From an uncultured Candidatus Saccharibacteria bacterium (GTDB lineage: Bacteria > Patescibacteriota > Minisyncoccia > Phycocordibacterales > VMEP01), in NCBI GenBank assembly GCA_964579635.1, contig CAZOFV010000005.1, forward strand, positions 1 through 62,163: a stretch of 62,163 nucleotides of DNA. Reading direction: 5' to 3'. The notes under the pieces were generated by a model that had not been told where the DNA came from, did not search any database, and saw only the letters and a program-made list of their open reading frames with translations. Shown here one piece after another: positions 17,915 through 54,186 of the stretch (within the stretch, counting starts at the first letter, position 1; every line of letters starts with the position of its first letter). Made by a program: the position numbers and the translations under genes.

Positions 17915-18005
17915 AAAATACCTTCAAAAAACATTGCGCAGTGCGACCGGCACGAGCATAGTAAATTTTTAGCAAAAAATTATACGTGTTTTTTGAAGGT
18001 ATTTT
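17915..18005. repeat. Palindromic MITE/REP-like element, copy A
   Basis: Terminal arms AAAATACCTTCAAAAA/TTTTTGAAGGTATTTT; near reverse complement of 44118-44207. Confidence 0.8.
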
Positions 18006-28549: not shown

Positions 28550-28728
28550 GCAAGTTACGCCATATTGAAGGCTACGCCTACATAATTTATGTGGTCCACA
28601 ATAATTCATTTTCCGTCGAAAATGAATTTTCCAGACCCGGACTCAGCCATTTTTTCTGCTGAAAAAATACGCTTCCGTCTTCATAAATTAGTAAGTAAGC
28701 AAAGAAGTTTCCTTACTTACTTAATTTA

Positions 28729-28800
28729 TGACCCTACAGGGAATCGAACCCTGCTTCCAGCCTTGAGAAGGCTGTGTCCTAACCGATAGACGATAGGGCC
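28729..28800 (-). tRNA. tRNA-Glu(CTC), CCA not encoded
   Basis: GGCCCTA/TAGGGTC acceptor, CAGCC-TTCTCAA-GGCTG anticodon arm, GGTTCGATTCC T arm. Confidence 0.95.
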
Positions 28801-44117: not shown

Positions 44118-44207
44118 AAAATACCATTAAAAAACACGTATAATTTTCTGCTGAAAATTTACTATGCTCGTGCCGCCGCACTACGCAATGTTTTTTAATG
44201 GTATTTT
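44118..44207. repeat. Palindromic element copy B
   Basis: Arms AAAATACCATTAAAAAACA/TGTTTTTTAATGGTATTTT; AATTTT-CTGCTG-AAAATT inner hairpin. Confidence 0.8.
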
Positions 44208-53378: not shown

Positions 53379-53483
53379 GAAATATAGTATATATCATGAT
53401 AAGTAACAGGTGAACTTTTCATTTTCTGTTTTTTTTGTTAGCATACTAGCCACATTCCGGAGTAGTTGAAATGCGAATAAATA

Positions 53484-53557
53484 AAGCATTTCAAAGGCGG
53501 AGGCTGACGAGCCGAGCCGGGGTCGCAGAATTTTTCAGCAGAAAAATATCTGTGACC
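53484..53557 (+). repeat. 74-bp repeat, identical to 53976-54049
   Basis: Exact duplicate; GGTCGCAGA-ATTTTT-CAGCAG-AAAAAT-A-TCTGTGACC hairpin. Confidence 0.9.
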
Positions 53558-53591
53558 TGCGGTCCCGCTGAGATACTCCTGATATGTATAT

Positions 53592-53666
53592 TCCGGAGTA
53601 GCTCAGCGGTAGAGCGGTCGCCTGTTAAGCGATTGGTCACAGGTTCGAATCCTGTCTCCGGAGCCA
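53592..53666 (+). tRNA. tRNA-Asn(GTT), CCA encoded
   Basis: TCCGGAG/CTCCGGA acceptor, GTCGC-CTGTTAA-GCGAT, GGTTCGAATCC. Confidence 0.96.
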
Positions 53667-53714
53667 GAAATAGTTAGCCCTGCTGCGAAAGCAATGGGGC
53701 TTTACTATTTCCTT

Positions 53715-54097
53715 CGGAGACAGGATTCGAAAGATTTTGCGGGCACCTGTTTAGCAAAACAGGTCGCAAAATCAGGGTCGAGAAATTTTTCTGCTCGACG
53801 GAGCGGAAAAATGTTCTTGACCGAACCTGTCTCCGGAGCTTGTAAAAACTTTAGACCCCCCTTATAGGGGGCTTTAGTTTTTTAAGCTCCGGAGAGCAAG
53901 CAACTAGATTTGCTTGCGTACAGGATTCGAAAGCCGGAGCGCGACGGCGCGAGGCGGGCTTAATTGCGATAAGTGAAGCATTTCAAAGGCGGAGGCTGAC
54001 GAGCCGAGCCGGGGTCGCAGAATTTTTCAGCAGAAAAATATCTGTGACCGCGCAAAATCTCAGTAGAGATTTATGCGTGACCAATCCTGTCTTCGGA
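53715..54097. repeat. Array of inverted and direct tRNA-Asn 3'-end copies with nested hairpins
   Basis: Inverted 53715-53731, direct 53826-53839, split inverted 53886-53931, direct 54083-54097. Confidence 0.85.
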
Positions 54098-54186
54098 ACT
54101 TCGAAAGTACTATCTTTACCCCCTTTTTTTCATAATAGATTTTATGAAAACTTTAAATATCACAATATATTTGAGATAATAAAACT

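Follow-up and report, generated by a model that had tools for sequence, protein, structure and literature searches.

The 62,163-nucleotide (nt) stretch analysed here, referred to as the window, is contig 5 (CAZOFV010000005.1) of the genome of an uncultured Candidatus Saccharibacteria bacterium from the Patescibacteriota (assembly GCA_964579635.1), which is 652 kb in size, has a G+C content of 38% and harbours 41 tRNA genes and a tmRNA gene. Surrounding its tRNA-Asn(GUU) gene are four copies of the gene-less, strongly folded cassettes, approximately 100-200 nt in length, that Patescibacteria carry as insertions at tRNA and tmRNA genes: three modules are stacked on the 3' side of the gene and a fourth lies on its 5' side. 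Four components recur in each: a hairpin, the tRNA end copied once as its reverse complement and once directly, and a conserved core made up of two hairpins. The parts of the locus are as follows, with direct copies of the gene's 3' end denoted A, inverted copies A', the corresponding copies of its 5' end B and B', the hairpins of the core H1 and H2, and the covariance model of the core, described below, R1.

53454-53465, + strand: B, a 12-nt direct duplicate (ATTCCGGAGTAG) of 2 leader nt and tRNA-Asn nt 1-10; left edge of the 5' module and exact repeat of 53590-53601
53466-53494, + strand: hairpin of the 5' module (TTGAAATGC...GCATTTCAA), from the fold; present without the core in the congener G003
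53495-53557, + strand: core copy 1 (R1 87 bits, E 1.4e-21; covariation)
53495-53520, + strand: H1 of core copy 1, with an internal GA loop
53521-53557, + strand: H2 of core copy 1, GGTCG...TGACC with a G.U pair
53568-53579, + strand: B', an inverted copy (11/12) of tRNA-Asn nt 4-15, from reading the sequence
53592-53666, + strand: tRNA-Asn(GUU), CCA encoded (ARAGORN; Rfam tRNA model, 73 bits)
53667-53711, + strand: hp0, a hairpin linker forming one long palindrome with the tRNA 3' end and A'1
53712-53731, + strand: A'1, reverse complement of tRNA nt 54-73 (19/20, 95%), pairing with 53644-53663 of the tRNA
53734-53822, + strand: Type-2 core, from the fold, with H1' at 53734-53772 and H2' at 53776-53822
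53823-53839, + strand: A1, a direct copy from T-loop nt 57 to C74 with one T missing, closing helix P1 with A'1
53840-53885, + strand: hp1, terminator-like hairpin linker of the next module (fold z -7.96)
53886-53931, + strand: A'2, the second inverted copy, split into an acceptor part (53886-53895) and a T part (53920-53931)
53896-53917, + strand: H0, the conserved hairpin splitting A'2 (GCAAGC..GCTTGC-GT)
53933-54082, + strand: composite core (R1 matches at 53931-53979, 53986-54049 and 54050-54078)
53933-53957, + strand: H1a of the composite core
53959-53986, + strand: hairpin of the composite core
53987-54049, + strand: core copy 2, within the composite core
54050-54082, + strand: extra H2b of the composite core
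54083-54099, + strand: A2, the third direct copy of the tRNA 3' end (15/17), closing P1 with A'2

The region from 53644 to 53731 folds at -58.2 kcal/mol (z -10.95), and z for the modules ranges from -5.7 to -11 relative to dinucleotide shuffles; as none of 200 shuffles folded as well, chance is excluded. In each module's fold, the inverted and direct copies pair into a closing helix around at least two hairpins. Several of these relationships had been described in an initial annotation made from the sequence of the window, and they stand: the exact 17-nt inverted copy (53715-53731, the reverse complement of 53644-53660), the direct 14-nt copy (53826-53839, identical to 53651-53664, within a full copy at 53823-53839), the second inverted copy split by a hairpin (53886-53895 and 53920-53931 around 53896-53917) and the 74-nt unit shared by two modules (53484-53557 and 53976-54049). 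The GGTCG...TGACC frame it had seen in two hairpins is present in three (53521-53557, 54013-54049 and 53776-53822), and the regeneration of acceptor and T stems that it had proposed agrees with the pairing of inverted and direct copies into a helix resembling those stems. Its suggestion of processing by RNase P or RNase Z is a possibility; neither ARAGORN nor the Rfam tRNA model calls the modules tRNA-like. It had not listed the third direct copy at 54083-54099, nor the 12-nt duplicate at 53454-53465 with its inverted copy at 53568-53579, and it missed the genome-wide extent of the family, the fourth module on the 5' side, in which the first 74-nt unit lies, and the cores situated away from tRNA genes. 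B' extends 5 nt past the duplicated B, and its counterpart in G007, a member of another genus, is perfect (12/12). The linker hp1 is the sole terminator-like site found by a terminator scan, and open reading frames (ORFs) of 57 and 68 amino acids across the region run through the tRNA and the hairpins.

Comparison with the congeners G001, G002 and G003, and with G007, revealed occupied and vacant forms of the same sites. On the 5' side of tRNA-Asn, where the upstream flanks of G001 and G002 are alike, G002 has a single ATTCCGGAGTAG followed by the rest of the gene without an insert, whereas in G001 a 124-nt insert separates two copies of the 12-mer, equivalent to a 136-nt insertion with a 12-nt duplication; G003 has the duplication and the hairpin with no core, and G007 has a full module. 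Similarly, at tRNA-Ala(UGC) the trailer (AATGATTCGCT...) lies directly behind the tRNA in G003, an empty site, while in G001 the tRNA is followed by 179 nt ending in GAGTCCTGTACGGTCCAC, which corresponds to G57 to the 3' end (an 18-nt duplication), with a trailer of the G003 type behind the distal copy (43/50 identity). This pair was compared by exact matching; MAFFT misaligned the duplication. The genome studied here has a different family member at tRNA-Ala(UGC). At the 3' side of tRNA-Asn, there are no modules in G002 and a different set in G003, hence turnover is fast within the genus. The existence of filled and empty pairs in sister species means that the cassettes are insertions, gained and lost like mobile DNA, rather than artefacts of assembly. 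Structured cassettes have therefore been inserted at the ends of tRNA genes with duplications of 12-18 nt, have stacked there, in tandem or nested, and have been gained and lost between species. The initial annotation had likewise proposed small elements that insert repeatedly and are tied to the T loop; position 56/57 is where the direct duplication begins, and the modules stack.

Misassembly across the repeats, the refutation foreseen by the initial annotation, is accordingly unlikely, indeed scarcely credible. It could draw on the exact 74-nt repeat, at which alone the unitig graph breaks. However, a 348-nt unitig over 53609-53956 shows no difference across three sequencing runs, all of one study, the probable source, and the parts follow one another in the same order in G001, at 93% identity over approximately 510 nt; furthermore, the family is present in dozens of independent genomes. 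The 74-nt repeat itself has a distinct history. The composite core (H1a, hairpin, H1b and H2) shares 94% identity over 94 nt with the module behind tRNA-Phe, but from 53976 onwards its sequence is exactly that of the unit preceding tRNA-Asn; the switch falls within a hairpin arm in which it and the tRNA-Phe paralogue differ, and the 3' arm of the hairpin has thereby been replaced, which leaves the hairpin poorly paired. G001 has a simple core where the window has the composite one, and is without the 74-nt arrangement. We read the identity as the probable outcome of a short, recent gene conversion between copies lying 492 nt from each other; tracts of this kind would help to keep cores at different loci alike.

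The initial annotation had suggested surveying tRNA loci and modelling the core by covariance, and reading the flanks of every tRNA gene uncovered a genome-wide family. Behind most of these genes, and behind the tmRNA gene, is the same layout: the gene, a hairpin, the reverse complement of the gene's own T arm and acceptor strand, GAAAG, H1 (CCGGAG-hairpin-CGAGGCGG), H2 (GGTCG...TGACC) and the gene's sequence from G57 onward. Type-2 cores are also found behind tRNA-Tyr, tRNA-Leu(UAG), tRNA-Arg(UCU) and tRNA-Ser(GCU), and H0 recurs behind at least 10 other tRNA or tmRNA genes. R1 was built from 18 aligned cores, the consensus fold of which (RNAalifold) consists of two hairpins with 22 pairs. 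It has 49 matches in the 652-kb genome, of which 32 adjoin a tRNA or tmRNA gene, at distances of up to 600 nt on its 3' side or 260 nt on its 5' side, against approximately 1.4 expected by chance; all 32 are on the strand of the gene.

It is the gene's own end that is copied. Out of 42 candidate tails, the own tail was the best match in 9/22 (A) and 12/22 (A') of the immediate flanks, against approximately 0.5 expected, and 420-nt downstream windows contain 14 direct and 12 inverted own-tail copies. The mean duplex energy of the closing stem is -15.5 kcal/mol in the gene's own flank and -7.4 kcal/mol for mismatched partners. Pairing of A' with A thus places the core on a three-way junction, the closing stem of which bears the letters of the local tRNA. 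The right junction is constant (...GACC|GA(N)TCC, equivalent to C56|G57 of the T loop), and it is here that extra H2 units are added in tandem. The linkers are variable and in most cases resemble terminators; their hairpins belong to the cassette, as they are common to different tRNA loci (Arg-GCG with Leu-UAA; Leu-UAG with Tyr). Two simple origins of the copies were rejected. At tRNA-Arg(CCU), which has two G.U pairs in its T stem, A' reads CAGG and not GTGGG, the sequence of the 5' strand, so A' is a true complement of the 3' strand and not a copy of the tRNA 5' strands. Mature tRNA fragments are ruled out as the source because duplications include letters that are not part of the tRNA, namely 2 nt upstream of +1 at tRNA-Asn and, at tRNA-Thr(GGU), 5 trailer nt with no CCA; the duplications must have been copied from DNA or from a precursor. 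One further cassette lies behind an ARAGORN prediction with the anticodon UUA ('tRNA-Stop', C1:7263-7338), the sequence of which is near that of tRNA-Lys(CUU); this may be tRNA-Lys(UUU) read one base out of register.

Compensatory changes are found in 17 of the 22 pairs of the core, in which H1 carries a tandem G.A loop and H2 the GGUCG/UGACC helix with a bulged A and a G.U pair kept in 18/18 sequences. As this pair would be a C.A mismatch on the opposite strand, it is the gene-sense strand that is folded, either as RNA or as single-stranded DNA. The first of these options leads to the suggestion that the modules are functional RNAs co-transcribed with the tRNA, whether as mimics of tRNA ends (an acceptor/T minihelix plus core) that serve as processing or punctuation signals for RNase P or RNase Z, or as released small RNAs, with the turnover of the DNA being secondary. 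The invariant G.U pair and compensatory changes, pointing to a single-stranded functional form, and the constant location of the cassettes on the tRNA strand would both suit such a role, and the 5' module lies between the tRNA and a promoter-like TTGCAC-17-TAGATT, identified in G001 and G002 by inspection of the sequence, which would generate a leader transcript. Cores of relatives are also found in contigs of three wastewater metatranscriptomes, at word depths of approximately 20-300, although these contigs are undirected and may contain DNA, such that they are weak support for transcription. In Escherichia coli, the tRNA-linked repeats (TLRs) considered below are transcribed and processed, and some (RrA/B/F) have been reported as released small RNAs (PMC8144298). 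Nevertheless, modules are present or absent at one tRNA between sister species, G002 having none at tRNA-Asn and G003 none at tRNA-Ala, and are therefore dispensable; their number and type vary at one locus within the genus; a processing signal needs no copy of the local tRNA letters; and copies exist far from tRNA genes. On balance a primary RNA function seems unlikely, if still a serious proposal. The idea in the initial annotation that the modules serve as integration decoys found nothing in its support.

The other 17 R1 matches mostly represent a dispersed subfamily of approximately 90 nt with an A/T-rich closing stem of its own, in which there are compensatory changes between copies. Two are in the window:

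44137-44189, - strand: dispersed core with its own A/T-rich closing stem, not linked to a tRNA (R1 36.7 bits)
17933-17986, + strand: second dispersed core (R1 30.7 bits)

A different type of copy is found at C3:70753-70926, a unique site outside tRNA genes at which the full layout (X-X'-core-X) is accompanied by a 27-nt exact duplication of the local sequence. The turn sits at a pre-existing short palindrome. No empty site was found for this locus, all three congeners being filled. Adjacent to the cassette is a non-coding stretch of approximately 120 nt (C3:70977-71099), shared at 99% identity with G001, at 94% with G002 and G003 and at 82% with another genus; no Rfam family matches it, and it may be an unannotated RNA gene. 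Upstream of it, at approximately 70650-70760, a promoter-like site and a short terminated transcript are predicted.

The copy at C3:70753-70926 bears on the proposal that insertion is templated by the target, with a mechanism that writes the inverted and direct copies from whatever sequence it enters, such that any gene end could become a closing stem. This might occur through fold-back or template-switch synthesis at a hairpin, a micro-scale version of the duplication-inverted triplication-duplication rearrangement (DUP-TRP/INV-DUP), or through a nucleic-acid-guided process. Besides the full layout at a non-tRNA site with its turn at a pre-existing palindrome, the proposal would accommodate the interleaving of local letters with cassette-borne letters (hairpin, H0 and core) in three separate segments, the true 3'-strand complement at tRNA-Arg(CCU), and the same triple arrangement in an E. 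coli TLR. However, a simple template switch predicts that the trailer hairpin should reappear as a duplicate beyond the distal copy, and at tRNA-Ala and tRNA-Gly(CCC) the hairpins are unrelated; simple fold-back duplication was rejected, the predicted duplicate not having been found. Several precise switches would also have to recur at dozens of loci. We regard templating by the target as improbable, while retaining it as a working alternative.

The reading that we lean towards, with somewhat less than even confidence, is that the cassette integrates by site-specific strand exchange at C56|G57 of the T loop, through an attachment site formed by a folded single strand. The substrate would be the folded strand A'-core-A, comparable to integron attC sites or to CTX-phi, and were the cassette circular (A, linker, A', core), this duplex would be present as a double-stranded copy of the gene end. 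Integration would yield the gene with the cassette-borne end, the linker, A', the core, the original end and the original trailer, which is the order observed; the inserted copy of the 3' end would keep the tRNA intact, with the original end and trailer pushed downstream. The enzyme would act in trans, and cores at different loci would be kept alike by constraint and by short gene-conversion tracts. The covariation of 17/22 pairs and the G.U pair retained in 18/18 sequences count in favour of a constraint on the single strand. A single Xer-type tyrosine recombinase (C1:53736-54695), the only tyrosine recombinase of the genome, is present in 57/61 relatives (genus to order); its best matches are XerD and XerA models, with integron-integrase models matching partly and below their cut-offs. 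It was the only ubiquitous candidate enzyme found, and is a candidate by ubiquity alone.

A number of observations weigh against strand exchange at the T loop. No enzyme could be linked to the cassettes, and neither a circular or excised form nor an informative joint was found in the unitigs of the source runs, unitigs alone being covered. Conservative exchange carries the stem letters along with the cassette, and would therefore leave unaccounted for the similar cores that bear each gene's own letters; for the same reason, a cassette could live only at the tRNA whose end it carries. Nor does it account for the copy at C3:70753-70926. Dispersed copies have a closing stem of their own and no third copy upstream. 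Inverted copies overrun the duplication by 2-5 nt (B' covers nt 4-15 and the duplication nt 1-10), and in the 5' modules the junction is another one, following nt 10. A target-templated process would better accommodate both the non-tRNA copy and the way in which inverted copies project past the duplication, and the core could be conserved for an RNA function instead of for recombination.

Integrons offer an analogy for the proposed site-specific strand exchange. Like attC sites and the CTX-phi site, the cassettes are imperfect palindromes conserved in structure rather than in sequence, with a strand-specific G.U pair and a bulged base, and the site would re-form across the junction of a circular cassette; as with attC, arrays grow at one entry point and the cargo ranges from nothing to genes. 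By contrast, there is no IntI here, the sole tyrosine recombinase being Xer-like, and the cassette stem carries the letters of the target over approximately 20 nt. Membership of the integrons is not claimed.

Larger inserts bounded by the same repeats and bearing genes are found at tRNA-Ala of G001 (1.9 kb, three ORFs) and at tRNA-Gly(UCC) in the genome studied here. At the former (tRNA-Ala(UGC), G001:C7:492150-494520), a composite core is followed by three small ORFs (secreted, membrane and tautomerase-like) and then by a remnant of the tRNA end; as the ORFs lie between the core and the remnant, the gene cargo is inside the repeat-bounded array. A kilobase stretch behind tRNA-Arg(GCG) of G001 was uninformative as a further instance of cargo, consisting of ordinary opposite-strand genes with no distal core. 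In 2002 Williams is said to have described how islands, prophages and cis-mobilizable elements (CIMEs) using tyrosine integrases occupy tRNA and tmRNA genes, with sublocation in the T loop. The cassettes resemble such islands in that their direct repeat extends from the T loop as far as the 3' end, the insert restores the gene, the tmRNA gene is also targeted, elements accumulate in tandem and sites are polymorphic (at tRNA-Ala, empty in G003 and filled in G001). The modules could be decayed, CIME-like remnants of integrase-borne islands or prophages that entered the T loop and left attL and attR repeats, as both the extent of the direct repeats and the larger gene-bearing inserts would allow. 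We nevertheless judge this origin to be highly doubtful. The cassettes are only 100-200 nt in length, have neither integrase nor any other gene, and no module contains an integrase remnant; their core is conserved and covarying, not decaying; the inverted copy, which like the folded core is a departure from islands, is left unexplained; and with dozens of tRNAs occupied in one tiny genome, a separate island would be needed for each of approximately 30 loci in 652 kb.

The cassettes also have features in common with Miniature Inverted-repeat Transposable Elements (MITEs) and Repetitive Extragenic Palindromic (REP) sequences, being small, gene-less, multi-copy and hairpin-forming, with dispersed copies that have terminal inverted repeats of their own. 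They differ from MITEs in that their duplications are 12-27 nt long, that their terminal repeats are target-derived when tRNA-linked and otherwise subfamily-specific, and that no parent element sharing their ends was seen. It could be imagined that they are REP- or REPIN-like hairpin repeats moved by the HUH (Y1) transposases of these genomes related to REP-associated tyrosine transposases (RAYTs), enzymes of single-stranded DNA to which strand-specific hairpins would be suited. Two such genes are present here (C9:8066-8746 and C2:64141-64827), with HUH/Y1-domain products of 226-228 amino acids, and 43/61 relatives have genes of this kind, up to 13 in number. Each of the two genes here has a short hairpin of its own on either side (CATAGGGGTACCCCTATG; CTTGGAGGTTCAACCTCCAAG), unrelated to those of the cassettes; the elements are kept in 16/18 relatives negative for Y1, and there is no GTAG-type REP signature. 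Given this lack of both adjacency and co-occurrence, RAYT-like transposases were ruled out as the mover, and a REP-like nature of the cassettes is very improbable.

The nearest architectural parallel is found in E. coli, in which 22 TLR units are distributed over ten loci, one to five in tandem per locus, and the last 18-19 bp of every unit match the 3' end of the preceding tRNA or rRNA gene exactly; their function is unexplained (PMC8144298). They were first described by Egan & Landy in 1978 and then by Rudd in 1999, as cited in Stenum et al. 2021 (PMC8144298). One locus was examined, tyrT/tyrV (rttR) of strain K-12 (NC_000913.3, 1286700-1287330). Each 178-bp unit there contains a 22-nt inverted copy (86%) of the T arm and acceptor of tRNA-Tyr, and a direct copy that is interrupted within the T loop (TTCGA|ATCC) by 66 nt of GC-rich insert, with a multi-branch fold closed by the inverted and direct copies. 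The inverted copy is not in PMC8144298, which mentions the direct 18-19-bp repeat alone. Both kinds of element stack in tandem; the cassettes lie directly behind a tRNA or tmRNA gene and on its strand, as TLRs lie behind tRNA or 5S genes, and end in a copy of the gene end of 14-18 nt (18 nt at tRNA-Ala) where TLRs have 18-19 nt. TLRs differ in keeping the 5' strand of the T stem, in being split at 58|59 instead of 56|57, and in being few and confined to enterobacteria. The best R1 score on tyrT/tyrV was 2.3 bits (E 3.1), so the two share an architecture without detectable homology. Hence the statement in the initial annotation that no named family was known holds in so far as the cassettes match no Rfam family and have no detectable homology to TLRs, but not for their architecture, which the TLRs of E. 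coli share (PMC8144298).

The cassettes add a new and widespread form to a class already known, if unexplained, that of tRNA-linked repeats and integrative elements that target tRNA genes. With an inverted copy now recognised in the tyrT/tyrV units of the TLRs, the origin of which has been open for decades, the parallel provides two independent systems in which one mechanism can be tested. A bolder suggestion, for which we would argue only with considerable reserve, is that the cassettes are mobile elements free of protein genes, in which every insertion writes the closing stem anew from the target and so yields one inverted and one direct copy of the gene end, with the TLRs of E. coli a second, independent family produced by the same process. 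Were this so, a target-written closing stem would imply a mechanism unlike known transposition or integration, and cassettes tailored to tRNA ends would be a general, unrecognised feature of bacterial genomes.

Searching with the region by BLAST gave matches in 57/61 of the relatives, and R1 under strict filters identified the core in 18/301 genomes sampled across the phylum, from several classes. The literature searched contained no description of such cassettes in the Candidate Phyla Radiation (CPR). Rfam 15, queried at E values of up to 1 with the region and two other loci, returned no family, ribozymes and tRNA-like RNAs included; only the tRNA itself and chance matches of the microRNA type, far below gathering scores, were found. 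A hammerhead-like reading of CTGACGAG was discarded, the motif being in the apical hairpin of H1 and having no covariance model match.

A large share of tRNA and tmRNA genes in many ultra-small CPR/Patescibacteria carry cassettes, and 49 copies in a genome of approximately 0.65 Mb are a substantial investment or burden. They show that DNA can be inserted into essential single-copy genes without harm, and appear to mark entry points for larger gene cargo. The conserved three-way junction provides a defined substrate with which to search for an enzyme. To annotators, the modules account for many 'tRNA fragments', pseudo-tRNAs and breaks between contigs in assemblies of CPR genomes.

Two other tRNA loci showed peculiarities. 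The tRNA-Glu(UUC) gene is in the opposite orientation to its downstream flank in G002 (C9:7743-8152) and G003 (C1:63345-63745), compared with the genome studied here (C7:12508-13100) and G001; an inversion seems to have taken place at this tRNA locus, in which inverted copies abound. Behind tRNA-Glu(CUC) at 28729-28800, the other tRNA gene of the window, degenerate H2-like hairpins with CAGCA and CGACGG loops are found at 28600-28728 on the - strand; neither an inverted nor a direct copy of the gene end is clearly present in this flank, which may represent a decayed module.

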